Virus record (IMG/VR): IMGVR_UViG_3300005590_000001
Span: 1 to 64,000 of that record
Reading direction: 5' to 3' (one strand)
DNA length: 64,000 bases
Source: a virus
The notes below the pieces were generated by a model. That model did no database searches and had not been told where the DNA came from. It was given only the letters and a program-made list of their open reading frames with translations. Position numbers and translations under genes: made by a program. The stretch's first letter is position 1. Every line of letters starts with the position of its first letter. Below, piece by piece: positions 248 through 63,768 of this stretch.

Positions 248-650
248 TCGCACACAAGATGAATTAGAATCTAATCCAATTGTAGAATACGTTGAAGAAC
301 TGGCTGTTAAAGAAGATATAAGCAATATGGACTTGGAAATCTATTATAGAATTTATCGAGGAGCATATTACTGGGGTAATGATCTAGATTATCAAGACTG
401 TAAAGATTTTGGTGAAGTTTTTGATCGTATGCGATTAGTAAAAACTGCACTAGAACCAGTTGGGACTAGAGACTTTTCCAACGGACTGAATCAAAAGATT
501 AAAGATTTTATTGATGAAGTTGATTCTAATGGGAATCCAACTGGACAAGATAAACCTTTTGAACCTATTTACAAAAATGAATATACAGACTTAATGTTTT
601 ATATTAGTGAAGGGTTAAAGGAAGCTTTGAATAATGATAGATCCGAATGA
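174..650 (+). CDS. Hypothetical protein, probable signal peptide (true start may be ATG near 210)
   Basis: ORF with a hydrophobic N-terminus, coupled to the next gene. Confidence 0.6.
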   Translation: MKMLKRYIQSFLMLIAIMLLTTSYSRTQDELESNPIVEYVEELAVKEDISNMDLEIYYRIYRGAYYWGNDLDYQDCKDFGEVFDRMRLVKTALEPVGTRDFSNGLNQKIKDFIDEVDSNGNPTGQDKPFEPIYKNEYTDLMFYISEGLKEALNNDRSE

Positions 651-2586
651 TAGTGGTTGGATAGATCATAAAGAGGGTGTTGCAGAAATTGAGGCTTTGA
701 AACCTCAGATTATTTACGGCGGTACTCCAGATATGCGACAATCTGGTGCCGGAAAAGTGCAACTCTTATACTCTGTCTATGATTCTTTTCCTGTTATTCA
801 CCAAGGTTCTGCTCCCTCTTGTGTTGCTTGTGCAACTGCTGGCGCTCTTGATTGTCTTCGAAAAACTGAAATTGCAGATGGTGATCGAGAAGATTTTGTA
901 AATTTCTCAGTCGAAGAATTCATCTATTTTGTCAGTAGAGTTATTATCGGCAAAAATAGACTGCGTGGTAGTGGTGGATCTTTAGTTTCTTGGGCTGTTG
1001 CTGGCTTAGAACAAATAGGATTTATTGTTAAAGATAAGTATGGAAACTTAGATCTTACTTCTTATAGTGCAAAAAGAGCAGTTGATTGGGGTGACGGACG
1101 TAATATTCCGGGTTCAGAATTAGTACAAATTGCTGCTGGACAAAAAATACTTGATTTTGTGCGGATTAAGTCTTACGAAGAGGCTCGTGATGCAATCTAT
1201 AATAAATATCCAGTGATAGTTGGAAGTCAGTATGGATACTCACGACAAAGAGATGCTGAAGGATTTGCTCTACAAAATACTAGATGGGCGCATTGTTATT
1301 TACCAAACTCTTTTATTTGGGGGGATGAGTTTAAAAAAATACAAGATTTGTCTGTTGGTGACGGAATTTATTCTCATGATGGTGAACTTACAGAAGTAAC
1401 AGAAATTAAAAAACAAAAATATTGTGGAGATATTTACAATATTCGTGTTTCTAATGGATTTCATAAAGTTACTAGCGACCATCCATTTTTAGTAAAATAT
1501 CAGTATTTACGCAACAGAGAATGTATTCCTTATGATGGATCAGTTTTAGATAATGTAACTTCTAATGTTGTGACAAAATCTAAAACCAAATTAGCATGGA
1601 TCAAGGCAAAAGATTTGTGTCAAGATGATTATCTAATAATGCCAAAACCTAAATTACCATCGCAATCTTTCATACCAGATAATAAAGAATTAAAGATTAC
1701 TCCTAATAGTGATTTAGCTTGGTTTTTTGGTATGTATTTGGGTGATGGTTACTCTACTAAAAATCATAAAATTATTTTTACGCAAAATATTAATGAAACC
1801 AATAATATTAATCGGCTTTTAAGAGTAGCTAAAAAATATTTTAATCTTCTTGGAACTGTAAAAAATAGGAAAATAAAAGAAAATTGCAATGCAGTAAATA
1901 TTATTTTCTACAGCGCAAAACTTTCTAACTTTATGCATAAGTGGTTTAAAACTAAAAATCTAAAAGAAATACCCCAATGGTTATTATCAAAAGAATGGGA
2001 CTTAAGATCTTTATTAATGGGTTTTAATGATTCTGACGGATGTTATTTAGATAACAAATGGTATAGGTTTTGTATCACAAACAGCTCTTATAAGTTGATA
2101 CAGCAATTTAACTTTATTATCAATTATTTAGGTTTTAAGTGTTGGTATAGAGAAATTGCCGGCGGTATGACCATCTTTAATAATAAAAAATATCAAAGAA
2201 AAAGGCAATATGCTTTGAATGTAAATCTTAAAAAGTTTAATAATTCTGATTTTTGTTACAATAATATTAAAAAAATAGAAAAGGAATTTTATTCTGATGA
2301 AATCATCACTCTTGAGACGGCAAATCATACTTATGTGGTAAACGGATCTTTATCCCATAACTGTATGTGGTGGTCTGGAGTAGACGATTCTGGTCGTAGA
2401 CCGGGAATTTGTAATCAGAATAGCTGGGGACGATCTTATCATTACGGTCCTAAACGACATAATCAGCCAGATGGATCTTTTTGGATTGATGCAGATAATG
2501 CCGATAAAATGTGCAGAAATGGAGATGCATGGGCTATTTCAAACTTTAAAGGATTTCCACTTAGAGCTGACTGGAGAATAATATGA
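634..2586 (+). CDS. Papain-like (C1) cysteine peptidase interrupted by an intein
   Basis: QGSAPSCVACA (oxyanion Gln and catalytic Cys), WAH|CM catalytic His, QNSWG motif. Confidence 0.85.
   Translation: MIDPNDSGWIDHKEGVAEIEALKPQIIYGGTPDMRQSGAGKVQLLYSVYDSFPVIHQGSAPSCVACATAGALDCLRKTEIADGDREDFVNFSVEEFIYFVSRVIIGKNRLRGSGGSLVSWAVAGLEQIGFIVKDKYGNLDLTSYSAKRAVDWGDGRNIPGSELVQIAAGQKILDFVRIKSYEEARDAIYNKYPVIVGSQYGYSRQRDAEGFALQNTRWAHCYLPNSFIWGDEFKKIQDLSVGDGIYSHDGELTEVTEIKKQKYCGDIYNIRVSNGFHKVTSDHPFLVKYQYLRNRECIPYDGSVLDNVTSNVVTKSKTKLAWIKAKDLCQDDYLIMPKPKLPSQSFIPDNKELKITPNSDLAWFFGMYLGDGYSTKNHKIIFTQNINETNNINRLLRVAKKYFNLLGTVKNRKIKENCNAVNIIFYSAKLSNFMHKWFKTKNLKEIPQWLLSKEWDLRSLLMGFNDSDGCYLDNKWYRFCITNSSYKLIQQFNFIINYLGFKCWYREIAGGMTIFNNKKYQRKRQYALNVNLKKFNNSDFCYNNIKKIEKEFYSDEIITLETANHTYVVNGSLSHNCMWWSGVDDSGRRPGICNQNSWGRSYHYGPKRHNQPDGSFWIDADNADKMCRNGDAWAISNFKGFPLRADWRII
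1294..2361 (+). mobile_element. Cis intein with LAGLIDADG endonuclease in the C1 peptidase
   Basis: Starts CYLPNS, block B VTSDHPF, FFGMYLGDG and LMGFNDSDG motifs, ends SHN followed by +1 Cys. Confidence 0.92.
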
Positions 2587-17240: not shown

Positions 17241-19724
17241 CTAAACATAAAGTTCCTTAATAGTATTTAAATTATTTTTAGCCCAATCTAAAATCTGATC
17301 AATACCAGTAGTAATATCTACTTTCGGCGACCACTCAAAAATACGCTGAACTTTATCTAGATCCGATATGTATATACGTTGATCAGCACGACGTTGTTCG
17401 CCGTTTTTATCCACAGATACAAACTTTTCGCCGGTTTTCTCTTCTACCATATTGATTAGTTCAAGTACTGACAATGTATTATTTTTACCACCGCCGACAT
17501 TAACTACAGTTGAAGGTCCGCCGTTATGTAAATACTGAATCTGCTTCAAAACTAAATCTTGAATATCATCCATAAATAGGCAGTCACGCACCTGTTTACC
17601 ACCCCAGCCGTAAATTGTTACTGGTAACTTAAGTAGATTAGCAATGACGAACCACGCGACCCATCCCTGCTCGGATTTTCCCCACTGATAAGGTCCAGCC
17701 AAACAATTGTGTACATGAAAATTATTTGCAATAAAATTATGACTATTTTCTACAGTCATATCATATACGTCATGAATTCCTATAGATTTTTTGTCTACAA
17801 TTTGATCCCAAACCATTCCTTCACCGCTGGTATCTTTGGTGTGAAGCTGTAACCAATCCTTAAATTTTGAGATTGCTAAATCTTCTTTCAAAAATTCTGA
17901 CAAATACATTAAATTATTTTGCCGATGATCATTATAGCTATATCCAATCTTATTAAATTTAGCATATGTATCTTTAGCAGATCCCAATCGTAGTTCAACA
18001 CCAATGGAAGTAGATCCGTCACTATTTTCATATTTAAGTGTTTGATGTAGTGAACTACCAATTCCGAACTCTAATAGCAGATCTCTTAATTCATACATAA
18101 ATGCATACAAATTATCTTGATAATCTTCAAGTTTACACTGAGTCATATTAAGATTTTGTAATTCTAATTTTTCTTGTCCCTTTCTGTTTCTATTTACCAC
18201 ATTGGGACAAGATCCTTCAGCGCCAAACAAACCACCCAAGAATTCTGCTTTGATATCTGTATCGGCAGATTTGATCCAATCCGGAACCAAATATTGATTG
18301 GTTACTTTTCTGTTGGTTGGCAACCCAAGTAAATACATATAGAATGAGAATGAAATACTACTAACACATATCTTTTTTGACTCTCCATCAATAATTTTAC
18401 CATTAGTTAATTCAGATTTAGAATTACTTTTAAAGATATCAGAACAATGAAATCCTAATTCCTTAATTTCATCTCTAATTTTTAATAAAGTTGCATCATG
18501 TTCATCATAAATTTGCATATTAATGGCAAAGTAATCTTTACCATTATCACTCCTTTGGCGTTTTTTAAATGACAAATGTCCGTCGCCGAAACACCACCCT
18601 AACAAACGAGCAATTTTATAAATGTTAGAATTGTTACATTTGAGCGGTAATAAACCTTTATTTTCTAAATCCGCAATAGACTTATCAATAAATTTTTGTG
18701 AGAATAACAAATCTGGATTAGAGATTGCCTCTCTATATTGATTTGAAGATAAAATTACTTTGTCTGATAATGCAGAAATATGTTTGCGTGTTCTTAAATC
18801 TGGATTAATTTCCACAAAAGAACCATGAGATATGTTTTCTAATTTTTGATATCCAGCAGGTGTGTAATACTGATGACAGTCTGTCGATTGAAGTTTAAAA
18901 CCCCTGCGAGTTGTCACTTCAAACAATTCTTTTTGACCGTTATGAAAGACACCGGTAGGTGTAGAATTATACCCTTGGTTGTCTTTAACGTCAATATCTT
19001 TGTCAATATTGATTAATTGTAGATCGCCGGATTTTGTCTTAATAAGAGTATCAGCAGCTAAACAACTAAACCGATTGATAACTGCCGGAATACTATAGGC
19101 GTCAGACCATTCCTGAATAAGTAAGTCGGCCATTGCTTTAGAAACGCCGTAAATACTACGGTCTCCGCCGTTGAGATTAAATCTCGTTGTTATTCCTCTT
19201 TCTGTAAATCCGTCACGTTCGTGTAATGCGACCATTACCGCTTGTTCTGGAGTAAGTTGAGGCTTAATAATATTATTTTTCTGCCGTGGAATAATATCTA
19301 CCCATTCATAACGAGTAGGTTTTTCTACATATGCAAAGTGATTGCAAGGTTCTCCCGGATATACCTTATTGGTAGACCAAAATACAATTGGAATTTTCGT
19401 TTTTCTAGAATACTCTAGAGTATTAAGCACACCAATTGTATTATTCTGAATATCGAATGCGGGATTCTTATAATTCACGGCTGATGGCTGAGCTGCCGTC
19501 AAAAGAATCGCATGATAATCGTCTCCAAGATTCTTGAAATCCTCCGGATTTCTAATGTCGCCGTGAATAAAATTTACTCCATGTTCTTTCAAACGCGGTA
19601 GATTAAATTCACTACCTCGGCGGACTAGGTTGTCTACCACATCCACCATCCATCCGTCTTTGGCAAAGTTACATGCTAAGTTTGCACCGATGAATCCGGC
19701 GCCGCCCAAAATTAAAAGTTTCAT
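17241..19724 (-). CDS. NDP-sugar epimerase (CDP-paratose 2-epimerase/RfbE-like SDR) with an intein
   Basis: GGAGFIG, STNKVY, YGVSK, NRFS|C...GPYQWGKSEQGWV, QVRD. Confidence 0.9.
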   Translation of the reverse strand: MKLLILGGAGFIGANLACNFAKDGWMVDVVDNLVRRGSEFNLPRLKEHGVNFIHGDIRNPEDFKNLGDDYHAILLTAAQPSAVNYKNPAFDIQNNTIGVLNTLEYSRKTKIPIVFWSTNKVYPGEPCNHFAYVEKPTRYEWVDIIPRQKNNIIKPQLTPEQAVMVALHERDGFTERGITTRFNLNGGDRSIYGVSKAMADLLIQEWSDAYSIPAVINRFSCLAADTLIKTKSGDLQLINIDKDIDVKDNQGYNSTPTGVFHNGQKELFEVTTRRGFKLQSTDCHQYYTPAGYQKLENISHGSFVEINPDLRTRKHISALSDKVILSSNQYREAISNPDLLFSQKFIDKSIADLENKGLLPLKCNNSNIYKIARLLGWCFGDGHLSFKKRQRSDNGKDYFAINMQIYDEHDATLLKIRDEIKELGFHCSDIFKSNSKSELTNGKIIDGESKKICVSSISFSFYMYLLGLPTNRKVTNQYLVPDWIKSADTDIKAEFLGGLFGAEGSCPNVVNRNRKGQEKLELQNLNMTQCKLEDYQDNLYAFMYELRDLLLEFGIGSSLHQTLKYENSDGSTSIGVELRLGSAKDTYAKFNKIGYSYNDHRQNNLMYLSEFLKEDLAISKFKDWLQLHTKDTSGEGMVWDQIVDKKSIGIHDVYDMTVENSHNFIANNFHVHNCLAGPYQWGKSEQGWVAWFVIANLLKLPVTIYGWGGKQVRDCLFMDDIQDLVLKQIQYLHNGGPSTVVNVGGGKNNTLSVLELINMVEEKTGEKFVSVDKNGEQRRADQRIYISDLDKVQRIFEWSPKVDITTGIDQILDWAKNNLNTIKELYV
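17706..19064 (-). mobile_element. Cis intein with LAGLIDADG endonuclease in the epimerase
   Basis: CLAADT start, STDCH block B, LLGWCFGDG and FLGGLFGAEG, VYDMTV...HVHN|C end. Confidence 0.93.
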
Positions 19725-43981: not shown

Positions 43982-44647
43982 ATGAAATATACAAAAGAAT
44001 TATTAGAACCAATTGTTCGAGAATGCACATCTATAAGACAAGTTTTACAGAGACTAGGACTCAAAGAAACTGGCGGAAATTATTCAAATATTGGAAAAAG
44101 AATAGATAAACATGGTATTGATCGATCTCATTTTACTGGACAGGGACATATGAAGGGTAAAAAAGCATTAAATAGAAAATCAACTAAATATTACTTAGAT
44201 AATAAAGCTCATATACACTCCAATGCATTACGTTTACGATTACTTAACGAAGGATATTTCGAACACCAATGCCAAGGATGTGGTGCAAAAGAGTGGAGGG
44301 GTGATTCTATACCTCTAGAATTACACCATATTGATTGTAACCATCACAATAATAGCTTAGATAACTTAATGATTTTATGCCCAAATTGTCACAAATATGA
44401 ACATGATCAATTAAAAAAGAAATCTAAAAACCCTAAACATAAAAAAAAATGTAAAGACTGCACTGAGCAAATAAGAAAAGAGTCGTTGAGATGTAGATCA
44501 TGTGCGTCAAAATTACGACCGACTAAAATTAATTGGCCAGATACCAAATCTTTAAAGAAAATGGTATCTGAAACCAATTATTCTGTAGTTGCAAGATCTT
44601 TAAAAGTTTCTGATAACGCAATTAGAAAACGATTGAGAAATCATTAA
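43982..44647 (+). CDS. HNH endonuclease, antisense to flanking genes, next to a tRNA
   Basis: CQGC...LELHHIDCNHHNNSLDNLMILCPNCH; C-terminal VSDNAIRK HTH. Confidence 0.9.
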   Translation: MKYTKELLEPIVRECTSIRQVLQRLGLKETGGNYSNIGKRIDKHGIDRSHFTGQGHMKGKKALNRKSTKYYLDNKAHIHSNALRLRLLNEGYFEHQCQGCGAKEWRGDSIPLELHHIDCNHHNNSLDNLMILCPNCHKYEHDQLKKKSKNPKHKKKCKDCTEQIRKESLRCRSCASKLRPTKINWPDTKSLKKMVSETNYSVVARSLKVSDNAIRKRLRNH

Positions 44648-45921
44648 TGGTAAAGACTTTGCATACTACGATATGCAATATTTGTTGAACGATGACGTGC
44701 AAATCGGATTTCTACATCCTTAATAAGCTTTTTACCTTCAAAGGTAATATGCTTACGGGATTTTTCAAAATCCTTTTTCAATTCTTCAAGTTGTGAATTG
44801 TTTTTCACAAGTTCATCTTGTTGTTCTTTATAATTATCCTTTATAGACTTGATAGGATCTTTATCTTCATTTTCAGACCACATATCTACAGATGCCGCTT
44901 TATTATAACGGCCGAAATAACAATCACAGATATATTTGTAAAATTGCGGTGTTAGGATCCATTCAACTTTCGCCGTATTCTTACTAGTATATTCCTTGAT
45001 CTTACAAATTTGAAAACCAAAGTTATCAATGATGTATGGCTCATCTAATGTATCGTCATCAGGATCGAACGCTGAATTCAGATAAACATTTTTCTTCCAT
45101 ACCAACTTCTTATCGCCATCAAGTACCCAAATATCCACACAGTTATTACCGTAGTAACTTGAATTTGTACTTGATCCACAATTAAAGTAACTAATAAAGT
45201 CACTTGCACGCTGTTCATGCATATTAACTTCGCGAATTACTTCCATGACAATATCGATTGATATATTGTAAAGCTCTACAAGACTTTCTACAAGATCATC
45301 TTTAAAATCTTTATTCTCCAAAAGATCATCAATGATTTGTTCAATAACAGCTTTGGAAAGCGAATCATATTTTTTCAAATATCTGATCCGTGTTGGTCTT
45401 TCTAAAAGATTTGGGTTTACGCTAAGTTTATTAGCGGTTAGAATAAAGAAAATTTTTGCCTTAGGATCTTGCACGCCATCCATACATGAAAGCAAAGCAC
45501 CACGCTCATCTTCTGGAAAAACTTTCTCATATTCGTCAACTAAAACCACACAATCAAAATCAATGTTTGAAATAAACTGTGCAATATTTGGAATTTGATT
45601 CTGTACAAGAATTACCGGCAAGCCCAACTGATTACATAAAAGTTTTGCCGTAAACGTTTTACCAGTTCCTTTAAGGCCGCTTAACAGAATACCAAGATTC
45701 TTTTCTTTTTGAAAATGAAATTGTTTGATACATCTTTCAATGAAGGGTTGGTCAATATCATAAACCTTATCAGGCATTTCAAACTTCTCAAAAGTATGAG
45801 ATAGGTACGGCCCAACCAAAGGATTAAAATTTAACGTATAGACATGATTTTTAATTTCGGCACGGCGATATTCAGGAACATTTTTAATACCAACATCAGT
45901 TTCAATCCAAACTCTACTCAT
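44644..45921 (-). CDS. AAA+ ATPase
   Basis: GLKGTGKT, VLVDEYEK, LTAN, RPTRI. Confidence 0.9.
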   Translation of the reverse strand: MSRVWIETDVGIKNVPEYRRAEIKNHVYTLNFNPLVGPYLSHTFEKFEMPDKVYDIDQPFIERCIKQFHFQKEKNLGILLSGLKGTGKTFTAKLLCNQLGLPVILVQNQIPNIAQFISNIDFDCVVLVDEYEKVFPEDERGALLSCMDGVQDPKAKIFFILTANKLSVNPNLLERPTRIRYLKKYDSLSKAVIEQIIDDLLENKDFKDDLVESLVELYNISIDIVMEVIREVNMHEQRASDFISYFNCGSSTNSSYYGNNCVDIWVLDGDKKLVWKKNVYLNSAFDPDDDTLDEPYIIDNFGFQICKIKEYTSKNTAKVEWILTPQFYKYICDCYFGRYNKAASVDMWSENEDKDPIKSIKDNYKEQQDELVKNNSQLEELKKDFEKSRKHITFEGKKLIKDVEIRFARHRSTNIAYRSMQSLYH

Positions 45922-46113
45922 TTTTATTAACCTTTAAAGATTTTGTAACAGAAAACAAACGGGCTGACCAAAAATCAGGTGACTGATTATACTCTTGACA
46001 ATATGAAGCAACTACTTTCTTTTCTATCTGCTCTTTAGTAAATTGCTCAGGTAAACCTCCATTAATAGTTATACATTCAACGGGTTTTTGTTTATAAGAC
46101 AAAACTACAATAT

Positions 46114-46950
46114 TCATGATTCTTCTTCCATATCCATATAATTGTCATCATCTTTAACAATTTGTTCAAGAACTTTAAAGTCCCAGCTTTTATGTTTGAA
46201 AGTATGCCAGCCGGGTTTGTTAATACGAACACATACTCCCTCTTTTGGGTGACGTGAATCTATTGGGTCTTCACCTTCTGTGAGTTTATCAATATAATCG
46301 ATTGCCATATCACGAACAGTTCTTATATCATCACCTTCAGGATGTAATCGTGTAAGTTCTGGAACATGTTTGATATTATGATGATTACACCATGATACAA
46401 CTTCGTCCCATGTCCAATCTACAGTTTTACCGTCAGCTAATACCCAAACAATTCTATATACATAGACATCGAATTCACCATCAGCACAACCATAAGTGTA
46501 GGTTATAGTATCACCATACTTTTTACGTAATTGTTTATTATTGCTACGTTTAGTTGGTTGACGTGGCATAATTGGCTGATTTGGACCTTCGAATCCAACC
46601 ACTTCATAGTAGACGATCATATGGTCTTCTAGAAATGGAATTATTTTCGCCGCCGCTTTAGCTCTCATATCTGGGCAATGATATCCCTCTTTCCCTTTGT
46701 CATTTAAGACAACTCTACGAGTACCATTCAGTACTTTTACCTCATTCTCAGATATGGGAATACCCAAACGACGAAGAAATCTCTCAAACCAATTAAGTTC
46801 TCGATTTGCGAGTACTCGACCAGTTCTTTGAGAAGTGTTATGTATTAAAATGTTGTTTGCATAAAAATTATTTGTTGCTGACACCGTTAGATCGTATCGA
46901 TCATTTTTCTTTCTTAGTTTGGTAATCTTGGTGATTTTCTTGTATTTCAT
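46114..46950 (-). CDS. Split-intein C-fragment (38 aa) fused to the RNA ligase C-terminal half
   Basis: MKYKKITKI...YDLTVS..NFYANNILIHN|TSQR; ligase motifs YYEVVG, EGVCVR, FKHKS. Confidence 0.9.
   Translation of the reverse strand: MKYKKITKITKLRKKNDRYDLTVSATNNFYANNILIHNTSQRTGRVLANRELNWFERFLRRLGIPISENEVKVLNGTRRVVLNDKGKEGYHCPDMRAKAAAKIIPFLEDHMIVYYEVVGFEGPNQPIMPRQPTKRSNNKQLRKKYGDTITYTYGCADGEFDVYVYRIVWVLADGKTVDWTWDEVVSWCNHHNIKHVPELTRLHPEGDDIRTVRDMAIDYIDKLTEGEDPIDSRHPKEGVCVRINKPGWHTFKHKSWDFKVLEQIVKDDDNYMDMEEES
46837..46950 (-). mobile_element. IntC of a naturally split intein
   Basis: Blocks F/G, terminal HN, +1 Thr, own ATG. Confidence 0.9.
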
Positions 46951-46958
46951 TGGTTTTC

Positions 46959-46969
46959 TGTGTAATAAA
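46959..46969 (+). promoter_or_regulatory. TGTGTAATAAA putative phage promoter
   Basis: Motif about 30 nt upstream of the endonuclease ATG at 47000. Confidence 0.45.
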
Positions 46970-46999
46970 TTACACGACTCCATGTACTTGAGGTGTAAG

Positions 47000-47851
47000 A
47001 TGAATTGTGAAAAATGTAACTTTAAAGCTCAAAAAAGAGGTCAATTAGGTATCCATAAGAAGACGTGTAAAAAATGGAAAAAGTTTTGTAGGAAAATGAC
47101 ATTACAAAAATTTGATTTTTTATATAATCACTTAAAAATGTCTGCGATAGATATTCAAAAAGCATACAAACTCAACTCATACGCAATTGTGTACACATTA
47201 ATGAAGAAGGTTGGATTCAAATGTAGGACTTTGTCTGAATCTGCGAAAATTTGTAGAAAGAAAGTCAAACATCACAACTTTAGTAAAAATCACCCGTCTA
47301 GAAAGAGATGGGAGAAGAGGCTGTTAAAAGAAGAAGGTATCACTAATGTTTTCCAACGTGAATCAGTTAAAAGAAAATCTGTTCAAACTCTACTAAAAAA
47401 ATATGGTGTAGAATCACCATACAAAATTACAACTTCACGAGGGAAAAATATATATTCATCAATTCATAGAAAAGTTGTAACTATATGTCAAGAACTTGAC
47501 ATTGAGATTGCTATTGAGTTTAAGCTTCCTAAAAAATCTGGTCGATATTTTGCTTATGATATATTTATATCTAACACTAAAAAGATTATAGAAGTTTATG
47601 GAGATTATTGGCATGGAAATCCATTAATCTACAAACCGAATGATTTAATCCTTAAGGGGTCAAGCGGTGAAAAAATAGTGAAAGAAAAATGGGAATTTGA
47701 TGAACTTAAAAATCGACATGCTGTTTTAGCAGGTTATCAGGTGTTGATTATATGGGAATCAGATTTAGTTAAAGATATCAATAAATTGATATTAGACTAC
47801 TCATCTGATAAGCATAGATCTCCGATACTTAATTCATCAACTCTTCTATAA
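47000..47851 (+). CDS. Free-standing Vsr/DUF559-like homing endonuclease between the split-intein halves
   Basis: YDIFI...IIEVYGDYWHG...LIIWESD; GAGGTG RBS before ATG 47000. Confidence 0.82.
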   Translation: MNCEKCNFKAQKRGQLGIHKKTCKKWKKFCRKMTLQKFDFLYNHLKMSAIDIQKAYKLNSYAIVYTLMKKVGFKCRTLSESAKICRKKVKHHNFSKNHPSRKRWEKRLLKEEGITNVFQRESVKRKSVQTLLKKYGVESPYKITTSRGKNIYSSIHRKVVTICQELDIEIAIEFKLPKKSGRYFAYDIFISNTKKIIEVYGDYWHGNPLIYKPNDLILKGSSGEKIVKEKWEFDELKNRHAVLAGYQVLIIWESDLVKDINKLILDYSSDKHRSPILNSSTLL

Positions 47852-48099
47852 ACTGAAAATTCTGGAAGCCAGACAGGATTATTTCCTGTAATGGTCAATT
47901 TAGAGCCATCATCGAACTCCAACTCGAACCATTCACCATCATTGGGAACATAATAAAATTCATCAATTGGGACATAGATATCCTGATGTGTGTTTAAATC
48001 ACGTGCTTTAATATGCACAGTAAGTTTAAGATCAACAATATCTCCGATTTTTTGTGTGCCCAATTCTAATGTTTGAACTTTGGTATTACGCTCTACACA
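47797..48099 (-). mobile_element. IntN (100 aa) of a naturally split intein
   Basis: CVERNTKV start, KIGDIV, FELEFDDGSKLTITGNNPV, VDELSIGD, then stop. Confidence 0.88.
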
Positions 48100-48651
48100 A
48101 CCATGAACTTTATTTGTAATGATTAACTCATCACCAATATTTATCTTTTCAATATTATACCTAAGCTGTTCTGTATCACGATGCTCAGGAAAACATAGTT
48201 CTTTTTTCTTAGTTGGTTTTTGTGAAGAGTTTCGATGAGGGTTTCTGCGTGAAATATATTTGCAACAGATTGGTATTCCTGCAAACTCATCTATTTGATC
48301 GCCCTCTTTTAATGCAGACGTATCTCCGAAGTGATTTAGATAAGAAAGAGGACACCAGAATCCATGAGATCGGACGCCTCGAAATTTTTGTACGCGGACG
48401 CGGCGATTTGGATCGAACATACCGCCTTCATTTGCACCAGTTTCTGGATTCTTACGGCGGATCAAATCGTTCTTCGCCGCAAACTCTGCGGACAACTGCA
48501 ACTCACACGGGAAGTATAAACCCAATGCTTGGTCCGGAGTATCTTTGCCGACAATAATAGTTTCACCCATTACTGTGCCAACGGCTAAACTATGTACTTC
48601 TGGATCTGGGTGTGGAGTAACTGTAACTTTACACACTATTGCTTTGTGCAT
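47797..48651 (-). CDS. RNA ligase (DRB0094-like) N-terminal half fused to the split-intein N-fragment
   Basis: N-terminal OB-like region (HPD, KFRGVRSHG), FPEHRDTEQL, motif I TNKVHG|C. Confidence 0.88.
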   Translation of the reverse strand: MHKAIVCKVTVTPHPDPEVHSLAVGTVMGETIIVGKDTPDQALGLYFPCELQLSAEFAAKNDLIRRKNPETGANEGGMFDPNRRVRVQKFRGVRSHGFWCPLSYLNHFGDTSALKEGDQIDEFAGIPICCKYISRRNPHRNSSQKPTKKKELCFPEHRDTEQLRYNIEKINIGDELIITNKVHGCVERNTKVQTLELGTQKIGDIVDLKLTVHIKARDLNTHQDIYVPIDEFYYVPNDGEWFELEFDDGSKLTITGNNPVWLPEFSVYRRVDELSIGDLCLSDE

Positions 48652-48941: not shown

Positions 48942-49937
48942 TCACTTCCCATACTTTCTAAAGATAGAAGAAATTTCATCAACAATAATAGAATCTAAAT
49001 CTTTATGCGCCCGCTCTATGTTGCCGTAATGAGATTCTAAACAATTCATTAGTAATGCCCGAATAAAATTTTCATTCGGTCGATCTGGTAATTTAGAAGT
49101 TTCTTTTAATCTTTCAAGTCTATGTTCAGCCTCTTGAAACCATCGAATTATTTCTTTTTCCGGCACCTCAGCATTACGGATAGCTTTCATCTTTGCTACT
49201 CGACCAGATTCTTGAAGATCTAAATCGCCGTGAGTAAGCATATATTCAGCTTGAGATACTAGACGATATACATGATATGCAAACTTAAGATCAAATCCAT
49301 GAATCTTTTGTGATTCAAATCTCTTACTTTTATTTACACCATCGACGTAAATCTCTAAGTATTTAGAATTACCAAGAGTTTGAGCTTCTGCAAATGTAGT
49401 ACTGTGTGGTATTCCAGCACTTTCTTCAAAGCTCCATATTAAAGCACAGCTTTTCTTTGCTTTCTTTAAATCAGTAAGTTGACCGTAAGCATATCCCTTA
49501 AACGTATTGAATAAACCTTTATGTAAAAAGCCGCGTCTATTTTCTCTAATGATTTCAAATGCTTGAGTGATATGTTTGATACATTCACGAGGAACAAATA
49601 GAGAGTCAATAATATTTGGATTATTTTTTCTTAGAAGCTGAAAATATTTAGCTATATTAAAGATTTGAAAGTCATAATGTTTCTTAGAAGATTTATCTTG
49701 CACATCATGTTGAAGCCAGTTATTAAAAACCTTAGTGTCAATATCAAAACCGTGTATTACATTTGGTTTGAAAAGATATTCTTTCGGCGGAATTGCAACG
49801 CCGTACATATCAAGGTCAGACCATTCCGTAGCAACACCATACGCTTGACTACCCATCACAGTTAGATAATGAGTATTACTTGGTAACCAAGTAGGTGGTT
49901 CAATTAGTTTCTTTTCTACTAAGTCTTGAAGTAACAT
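48942..49937 (-). CDS. Pol-beta superfamily nucleotidyltransferase (RlaP/YcgL-like)
   Basis: GSQAYG...SDLD, NNPNIID, GYAYGQ, KFAYHVYRL. Confidence 0.85.
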   Translation of the reverse strand: MLLQDLVEKKLIEPPTWLPSNTHYLTVMGSQAYGVATEWSDLDMYGVAIPPKEYLFKPNVIHGFDIDTKVFNNWLQHDVQDKSSKKHYDFQIFNIAKYFQLLRKNNPNIIDSLFVPRECIKHITQAFEIIRENRRGFLHKGLFNTFKGYAYGQLTDLKKAKKSCALIWSFEESAGIPHSTTFAEAQTLGNSKYLEIYVDGVNKSKRFESQKIHGFDLKFAYHVYRLVSQAEYMLTHGDLDLQESGRVAKMKAIRNAEVPEKEIIRWFQEAEHRLERLKETSKLPDRPNENFIRALLMNCLESHYGNIERAHKDLDSIIVDEISSIFRKYGK

Positions 49938-51443: not shown

Positions 51444-52073
51444 ATGACATATAAAGTATCTGATGATGATTTTAAATCATCAATTGAAAAATCAAACAAT
51501 ATAGGTGAAGCACTTAAAAATATGGGGTACACAACAGCATCACAAAATTATAGGATGTTCAATAAAAGAGTAAAACAATTAAATATTGATATTAGTCATT
51601 TTAATGCAAAACGCTGGGAGCGTAATAAGTTTATAAAAAAACCTATTGAAGAATTTCTTCAAAAGAATCGGTGTGTGAATAGTAGTAATCTAAAGAAAAG
51701 GTTGATTAATGAAGGCTTCTTAGAAAACAAATGTTATGAATGTAACATAACAGACTGGCAAAATAAAAAACTTGTAATGCATTTAGAACACAAAGATGGT
51801 GATCCTCTTAATAATGAATTAAGCAATTTAACTTTATTATGTCCTAATTGTCATTCACAAACAAGTACATATTGTCGTGGACAAAAAAGAAAAAAACACA
51901 CAAAAAACAAAAGAAATAAACCTAGATTTCATTTAAGAAAAGTTGAGCGTCCACCTCTTGAAGTTTTAGAACAAGATGTGAAAATTTTAGGTTATTTAGG
52001 TACTGGAAGAAAATATAAAGTTAGTGATAACGCTATTAGAAAATGGATCAAATATTATAAAAATAGCCCTTGA
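51444..52073 (+). CDS. HNH endonuclease, paralog of 43982-44647
   Basis: CYEC...HLEHKDGDPLNNELSNLTLLCPNCH; VSDNAIRKW. Confidence 0.9.
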   Translation: MTYKVSDDDFKSSIEKSNNIGEALKNMGYTTASQNYRMFNKRVKQLNIDISHFNAKRWERNKFIKKPIEEFLQKNRCVNSSNLKKRLINEGFLENKCYECNITDWQNKKLVMHLEHKDGDPLNNELSNLTLLCPNCHSQTSTYCRGQKRKKHTKNKRNKPRFHLRKVERPPLEVLEQDVKILGYLGTGRKYKVSDNAIRKWIKYYKNSP

Positions 52074-63429: not shown

Positions 63430-63768
63430 ATGAAAAAAAATATCAAAAAACAATGTAAAACACACGGATTAACTGATTTTATTTTAGAAGGACGTGGCTA
63501 TTATCGTTGTAAAAAATGTAGAAGTGCGTCTGTAACAAAATATCGCACAAAAATGAAAATTAAAGCTGTTCAATATAAAGGCGGTAAGTGTGAACGCTGT
63601 GGATATGATCGTAGCATTGCTGCATTAGAATTTCACCATAAAGATCCAACACAAAAAGATTTTGAAATTTCAACAACTGGTTGTACTAGATCATGGGAAA
63701 AAATAAAAGCGGAAGTCAATAAATGTGAATTATTGTGTGCTAACTGCCATCGCGAAATTCATAATTGA
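63430..63768 (+). CDS. HNH endonuclease
   Basis: CKTHG, CKKC, CERCGY, LEFHHKDP, LLCANCHREIH. Confidence 0.88.
   Translation: MKKNIKKQCKTHGLTDFILEGRGYYRCKKCRSASVTKYRTKMKIKAVQYKGGKCERCGYDRSIAALEFHHKDPTQKDFEISTTGCTRSWEKIKAEVNKCELLCANCHREIHN

Follow-up and report, generated by a model that had tools for sequence, protein, structure and literature searches.

An RNA ligase gene divided by a split intein around an antisense endonuclease gene

IMG/VR virus record IMGVR_UViG_3300005590_000001 is a 171,987-bp sequence with direct terminal repeats and about 33% G+C, and its first 64,000 nt (hereafter the window) carry, between 46,114 and 48,651, an RNA ligase gene that is coded in two separate halves, each fused to one half of an intein, with an endonuclease gene on the opposite strand between them. 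We consider it probable, on sequence grounds, that the intein is functional, that its halves splice in trans to restore an Rnl5-like RNA ligase, and that it is nested with an inverted but intact homing endonuclease (HE) gene of the EDxHD type. A first-pass annotation had described a ligase N-half ending in KVHG and running into a 100-aa acidic N-terminal intein half (IntN) and a stop codon, a plus-strand Vsr-like endonuclease, and a separate open reading frame (ORF) that opens with a 38-aa basic C-terminal intein half (IntC) ending in HN/T (a slash marks a splice junction) and continues as the ligase C-half. All of these parts were recovered, at the following positions:

48651..47797, minus strand: N-half gene (ligase N-extein and IntN), a 284-aa ORF.
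48100..48651, minus strand: N-extein of the RNA ligase, 184 aa, comprising an OB-like N-terminal domain and the first part of the nucleotidyltransferase domain up to motif I (...ITNKVHG).
47797..48099, minus strand: IntN, 100 aa, starting with Cys1; TAG stop at 47797-47799.
47000..47851, plus strand: HE gene, 283 aa, frame intact, predicted Vsr-like/EDxHD.
46960..46975, no strand assigned: palindrome GTGTAAT-AA-ATTACAC, perfect, with a 7-bp stem, in the HE-IntC spacer.
46950..46114, minus strand: C-half gene (IntC and ligase C-extein), within ORF 46114..46983.
46837..46950, minus strand: IntC, 38 aa (MKYKK...DRYDLTV...NFYANNILIHN).
46114..46836, minus strand: C-extein of the RNA ligase, 240 aa plus stop, beginning with Thr+1 (TSQRTG...).

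The charges of the two intein halves are opposite, with 20 acidic and 9 basic residues in IntN (net -11) and 9 basic and 2 acidic residues in IntC (net +7). The N-half gene starts at ATG 48651, preceded by GAGGA, and shares 16 nt with the ORF upstream of it, and the C-half gene most likely starts at ATG 46950, since its homologues begin with MKIKSIKKL. For the HE, ATG 47000 is the best start candidate, with GAGGTG 6 nt upstream; a divergent spacer of 49 nt separates it from the IntC start, and at the other end the HE overlaps the 3′ end of the N-half gene (IntN) by 55 nt on opposite strands. An Rfam scan of 45.8-49.0 kb found no group I intron and no other RNA family.

The interrupted host is an Rnl5-like RNA ligase broken directly after motif I

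The identity of the host was established from both halves. Pfam PF09414 (RNA_ligase) matched the C-half above its cut-off (4.5e-8), and the PHROG 968 profile ("RNA ligase", 398 positions) was tiled by the two products, the N-half covering positions 23-198 and the C-half positions 190-393; the relatives carry PF21189 together with PF09414. In uninterrupted homologues (417-470 aa) the sequence spanning the break is K[VLMI]HGTSQR, in agreement with KVHGTS, the sequence that the first-pass annotation had expected a splicing reaction to restore. When the exteins were joined in silico, the 424-aa product aligned over residues 1-424 to ligases of 417-429 aa at 52-59% identity without a gap at the junction, and the residues that are invariant in the uninterrupted homologues are kept in the window exteins.

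A profile of the uninterrupted homologues matched the Naegleria gruberi ligase NgrRnl (5cot, Rnl5; E 1e-5) over the N domain through motif I, where "viteklhGtsq" stands opposite "VTVKLDGSSM", which places the intein directly after motif I. Membership in the DRB0094 family, as proposed in the first pass, was only weakly borne out, since TIGR02306 (DRB0094) reached 14.8 bits on the N-half against a cut-off of 151, and the best solved relative is NgrRnl of the Rnl5 type. Because the DRB0094 model stays so far from its cut-off, the host is, as judged from these profile comparisons, an Rnl5-like RNA ligase and not a DRB0094 equivalog. Its common ground with NgrRnl and the Deinococcus radiodurans Rnl5 ligase is the order of domains, an OB-like one at the N-terminus and then the nucleotidyltransferase domain, together with an aligned motif I Lys; the similarity is remote, being found by profile at the E value given above, and motif I of the window ligase is K-x-H-G, not K-x-D-G. 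It is the sole PF09414 ligase of the 172-kb genome. Against 50,697 deposited phages, blastn with the locus gave no match, and tblastn with the N-half gave uninterrupted N-exteins only, with no record at 80% or more query coverage.

The residues of a class 1 intein are conserved in both halves

We assembled from public data about 72 IntN-bearing and 31 IntC-bearing cluster representatives that have the same junctions as the window intein, an agreement that is far beyond chance. Cys1, the class 1 nucleophile, and the block B Thr are present in all 72 IntN representatives, the terminal His-Asn of block G is present in all 31 IntC representatives, and the block F Asp is nearly always kept in the family alignment. 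The window IntC has the block F Asp, the penultimate His and the terminal Asn, with the junction H-N/T. As the intein alignments average only 46-48% column identity, these conserved residues are under selection. The +1 residue (Thr in 30 of the IntC representatives and Ser in 1) is uninformative on splicing, since Thr is also conserved at this place in intein-free ligases as part of the ligase motif.

Profile searches agreed with this assignment, with IntC above the NCBIfam cut-off of TIGR01443 (intein C-terminal) and an intein N-terminal region match on the N-half at 5.5e-4. The closest solved intein by sequence is the split NrdJ-1 (8ubs; E 2.6e-7 with the contiguous family member P0240 as query), followed by Npu and Ssp DnaE. 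NrdJ-1 is similar in the PVY/PVW that follows block B and in its NFFAN..L.HN C-terminus, and differs in its ribonucleotide reductase host and in its canonical T-P-D-H, where the ligase intein has T-G-N-N. The +1 residue of NrdJ-1 is Ser, compared to Thr in the ligase intein. A contiguous mini-intein of about 140 aa, T-G-N-N included, occupies the same site in longer ligases (P0234-P0241), which, as read from their sequences, must splice in cis to be active.

The same intein lineage was also seen after motif I in several other ligase families (K-x-H-G/C and K-x-D-G/C; L059, L064, L077 and others), where almost all members are split N-halves that end 22-29 aa past block B.

Asn replaces the block B His throughout the clade

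A feature that the first-pass annotation did not mention is the replacement of the block B His. Block B of the window intein reads T71-G-N-N74-P-V-W, with Asn at the His position (N74, codon AAT at 47878-47880), and HMMER alignments place the His of NrdJ-1 (8ubs, TPDHPVY) and of Npu DnaE (TKDHKF) opposite N74. Every one of the 72 family representatives has Asn at this position (T-G-N-N in 71, T-E-N-N in 1) in place of the T-x-x-H pattern, whereas sister inteins at the same site of more distant ligases (K-x-H-G/C and K-x-D-G/C hosts) have kept T-G-N-H. An IntN search of 1.84 billion cluster representatives (50% identity clusters) returned 317 relatives, and among the best 150 of these 317 the position is His in 81, Asn in 58 and Asp in 7; the few Asp forms of the lineage include ITGEDRIW. 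The 54 Asn forms with a readable N-terminal junction reside in K-x-H-G or K-x-E-G hosts, with 2 exceptions (KIHA and LTEK).

The block B His is seen as essential or important for the N-S acyl shift, and its natural exceptions form a very small group (PMC6333167). The Tko CDC21-1-type inteins described there likewise are natural inteins without this His, and a compensatory mechanism is presumed for them. They are archaeal and cis-splicing, with a bulky Leu at -1 and no sequence relationship to the ligase intein, whereas the ligase clade is of phage origin, comprises split and mini-inteins, and combines the block B Asn with His at -2 and Gly at -1.

Several observations weigh against a functional trans-splicing locus. 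The His that is usually essential for the N-S acyl shift is Asn here, the Shine-Dalgarno sequence at the IntC start is weak in the window, and neither sigma-70-like promoter sites nor T4-late TATAAATA sites are more frequent at the locus than in shuffled sequence, so that, for both the C-half and the HE, these scans gave no promoter candidate beyond chance expectation. The first of these points raises the question of whether splicing was lost together with the block B His, leaving intein halves that only hold the ligase halves together as a non-covalent clasp, like the Aeh1 NrdA tails. The change to Asn across the whole clade, at a position where His is essential in many inteins, would fit such a clasp, and an assembly domain offers a precedent, at least as outlined in PMC3045599. 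However, none of Cys1 (72/72), the block B Thr and the terminal His-Asn (31/31) would be required for a clasp, yet all are invariant in alignments of 46-48% mean identity, and a 138-aa domain left right after motif I would occupy the adenylylation site. Contiguous mini-inteins with the same Asn exist as well, and splicing is known for a small set of natural inteins that lack the block B His (PMC6333167). We consider the clasp, the foremost of the rival readings, unlikely, and a trans-splicing intein that restores the ligase remains the reading we prefer.

The nested endonuclease belongs to the EDxHD family

The vsr match on the plus-strand ORF was weak (0.005), the ORF matched PHROG 22677 (2e-14), and phmmer with the HE alone against the PDB returned only noise, so that profile and fold searches were needed. 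An alignment of 19 intact relatives revealed an N-terminal zinc finger (CxxC..H..C), a conserved helical middle part that is predicted to bind DNA, and a C-terminal nuclease domain with three invariant residues (D187, H205 and D234) and a nearly invariant one (E173). The HE profile matched I-Bth0305I (3r3p, E 0.006), and a Foldseek search with an AF2 model (mean pLDDT 83) gave 3r3p as the best hit (target TM 0.73-0.75, probability 1.0), followed by Vsr (1cw0). These fold matches, together with the conserved residues, assign the predicted protein to the EDxHD/Vsr-like family, as the first-pass label of a Vsr-like endonuclease had anticipated.

The EDxHD family was predicted from fractured genes in 2009 (PMC2677866) and characterised in 2011 (PMC3239194). 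Its prototype I-Bth0305I (PMC3239194, 3r3p) resembles the window HE in nuclease fold, E/D/H/D residues and multidomain build. It is encoded in a group I intron, whereas the window HE is free-standing within a split intein, antisense, and has an N-terminal zinc finger.

The antisense layout is inherited in one clade

We compared 14 IMG/VR and 46 metagenome loci of the ligase-intein family in which the parts had been mapped. The HE is on the sense strand in about 35 loci, often overlapping the IntC start, and 4 of these approximately 35 genes carry 1-7 stop codons. Four loci have HE remnants only and 6 have no HE between the halves; in all 4 of the latter with both frames readable (L091, L093, L117 and L129), the intein is still split. 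The relatives include intein-free ligases, mini-inteins, split inteins with a sense HE, with an HE pseudogene or remnant, without an HE and with an antisense HE, which correspond to states of a homing cycle. Two pairs of near-identical loci, L092/L093 and L114/L117, differ only in an HE remnant of approximately 100-200 nt between the intein halves and look like snapshots of HE loss from a split intein.

The four closest relatives of the window locus (L086, L088, L089 and L090), which come from different projects, all have the HE in antisense, with 51-59% extein identity and 44-52% HE identity to the window. The convergent HE-IntN overlap is 22-26 nt in L086, L089 and L090, the three in which it was measured, compared to 55 nt in the window. 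In a tree of the N-halves, the window and these four loci form one clade (SH-aLRT 100), so that a single change explains the HE orientation. In the HE tree, three antisense HEs cluster and the window HE branches without resolution among sense-strand HEs of the same well-supported group, which is compatible with a single origin of the antisense HE without establishing it. The antisense layout has persisted across a clade diverged to about 55% identity. Flanking inverted repeats able to explain an inversion were looked for at the locus and not found.

The degenerate HE genes of several relatives and the weak ribosome-binding site of IntC in the window would also suit a decaying locus, in which the ligase has been inactivated by insertions and is heading to loss. 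We regard decay as very improbable, since none of the three frames is interrupted, residues that are invariant among uninterrupted ligases are retained in the exteins, the layout persists in the diverged clade, and the genome has no other ligase of the PF09414 family besides this one, which lies near RlaP. Although the source is a metagenome-derived virus record, the chance that an assembly artefact or chimeric contig produced the inverted HE, which the first pass had named as a way in which its interpretation could fail, is practically nil, because the same inverted layout is kept in diverged sequences from four further independent metagenome contigs of different projects, and identical window proteins are present on two contigs.

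Comparison with published fractured genes

Dassa 2009 (PMC2677866) described fractured genes from 26 loci with gp41, IMPDH, DnaE, NrdA, NrdJ, DNA ligase, terminase and one unknown host, in which the three coding regions share one strand and the HE often runs at its 3′ end into the IntC start. The window locus resembles these fractured genes (gp41-1, NrdJ-1, IMPDH-1, NrdA-2, DNA ligase) in that a conserved nucleic-acid enzyme of phage origin is broken at a catalytic motif within a single locus, with a Vsr-like HE between the halves. Its intein halves of 100 and 38 aa fit the size ranges of 88-105 aa for IntN and 33-54 aa for IntC, and its charges (N negative, C positive) are as in NrdJ-1, IMPDH-1 and NrdA-2. 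The ligase halves have kept their original order and orientation at one locus, the N part running in frame into IntN and a stop, and the C part opening with an in-frame IntC. The first-pass annotation was thus right in recognising the kind of arrangement known for gp41, nrdJ and IMPDH, although not in including the antisense HE in it. Since the published definition has the HE on the strand of the two gene halves, an antisense HE falls outside the known layout; in the Dassa layout the 3′ end of the HE is at the IntC start, whereas in the window the 3′ end lies over IntN and the 5′ end faces the IntC start. The block B Asn, in place of His, is a further difference from canonical fractured-gene inteins.

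In the literature searched, we found no report of a split intein in an RNA ligase, nor of a split intein whose HE lies on the opposite strand. Actinophages are reported to carry inteins in RtcB-type and tRNA-splicing ligases, and LAGLIDADG genes in antisense are known from within contiguous inteins. RNA ligase is absent from the hosts of Dassa 2009, in which a DNA-ligase fractured locus is already listed (PMC2677866). The proposal of a new split-intein allele holds as far as the searched literature goes, yet the intein is common in metagenomes. What is new here is the host and site (an Rnl5-like RNA ligase, right after motif I), the heritable antisense HE, and the clade-wide change of the block B His to Asn.

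A second fractured gene, nrdA, was seen in the same genome outside the window (L002 162882-166283). It has the canonical same-strand layout, in contrast to the ligase locus, with two halves (Ribonuc_red_lgC, 6e-59 and 7e-58) that each carry a split-intein half and a 250-aa ORF between them.

Proposed origin, splicing and transcription of the locus

We propose that a class-1-type mini-intein would have entered the ligase gene directly after motif I (K-V-H-G/T-S), and that an EDxHD/Vsr-like HE gene would later have inserted at the usual endonuclease site of the intein, splitting it. The two ligase halves would then be translated apart, the acidic IntN and the basic IntC would associate, and trans-splicing would rebuild the adenylylation motif KVHGTSQR in a ligase of 424 aa. 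The spliced ligase may act in RNA repair alongside the neighbouring RlaP nucleotidyltransferase, whose family (RNA ligase-associating Pol-beta) has been described as a partner of RNA ligases in RNA repair. In the antisense subclade, the HE cassette would have been inverted, bringing its 3′ end over the 3′ end of IntN and its start opposite that of IntC.

With the cassette inverted, HE transcription must run opposite to that of the operon and would begin within the C-half coding region. Transcription of the C-half probably depends either on read-through over the approximately 850 nt of the antisense HE or on a promoter within it. The HE and IntC starts are 49 nt apart in the window, 26 nt in L089 and about 78 nt in L086, spacers that could hardly, if at all, accommodate two promoters. 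The palindrome at 46960-46975 could form a hairpin in either transcript and is not conserved in the relatives.

A more far-reaching proposal, which we hold with slightly more doubt than belief, is that the motif-I inteins of these ligases may splice without the block B His, perhaps by means of the conserved extein His at -2 (K-x-H-G/C), and that one subclade has acquired a stably inverted HE which, transcribed against the ligase operon and overlapping the 3′ end of IntN, may uncouple the selfish gene from the repair enzyme or regulate one against the other in antisense.

Genomic neighbourhood and other mobile elements

Between 30 and 64 kb the minus strand holds almost all genes, and the ligase halves are part of minus-strand gene strings. 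The C-extein gene overlaps the downstream ORF 45914..46117 (67 aa) by 4 nt, which links it toward an AAA ATPase. Neighbouring features and further endonuclease genes are:

48942..49937, minus strand: RlaP nucleotidyltransferase (PF10127 7e-18, PHROG 388), two genes upstream in the same gene string.
44644-45921, minus strand: AAA ATPase, 425 aa (PF00004 7.6e-12, PHROG 2376 3e-54), downstream in the gene string of the ligase C-half.
43982-44647, 51444-52073 and 63430-63768, all plus strand: HNH-like genes, the one at 43982 above the Pfam cut-off and the other two weaker matches.

The only free-standing plus-strand genes at 30-64 kb encode endonucleases, namely these three HNH-like genes and the EDxHD gene, and the homing endonuclease genes of this phage tend to be antisense to neighbouring minus-strand operons. 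Elsewhere in the window, an 827-aa ORF (17241-19724, minus strand) encodes an NAD-dependent epimerase/dehydratase broken by a contiguous LAGLIDADG intein (Pfam: Epimerase 7e-25, Intein_splicing 2.5e-11, LAGLIDADG_3 8e-6), and a 650-aa ORF (634-2586, plus strand) has an intein splicing domain and a weak LAGLIDADG match, with no host protein given by Pfam. A Pfam Gp23 search of the genome gave no match, and the control was also without a match.

Significance of the split ligase family

These loci would be a new natural source of split inteins with Thr at +1 and Gly at -1, related to the fast NrdJ-1 and present as many diverged alleles that are possibly mutually orthogonal. Since His, Asn and Asp occur at the block B position within one intein lineage, they also constitute a natural experiment in which the requirement for His in the first splicing step is directly comparable in natural backgrounds. 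For annotation, there is a ready risk of calling an RNA ligase of an uncultured phage wrongly, as two short genes with no relation to each other. Finally, the family provides a near-complete series of homing-cycle states in one host gene, including a heritable inverted form, and so extends the 2009 model of split-intein origin.

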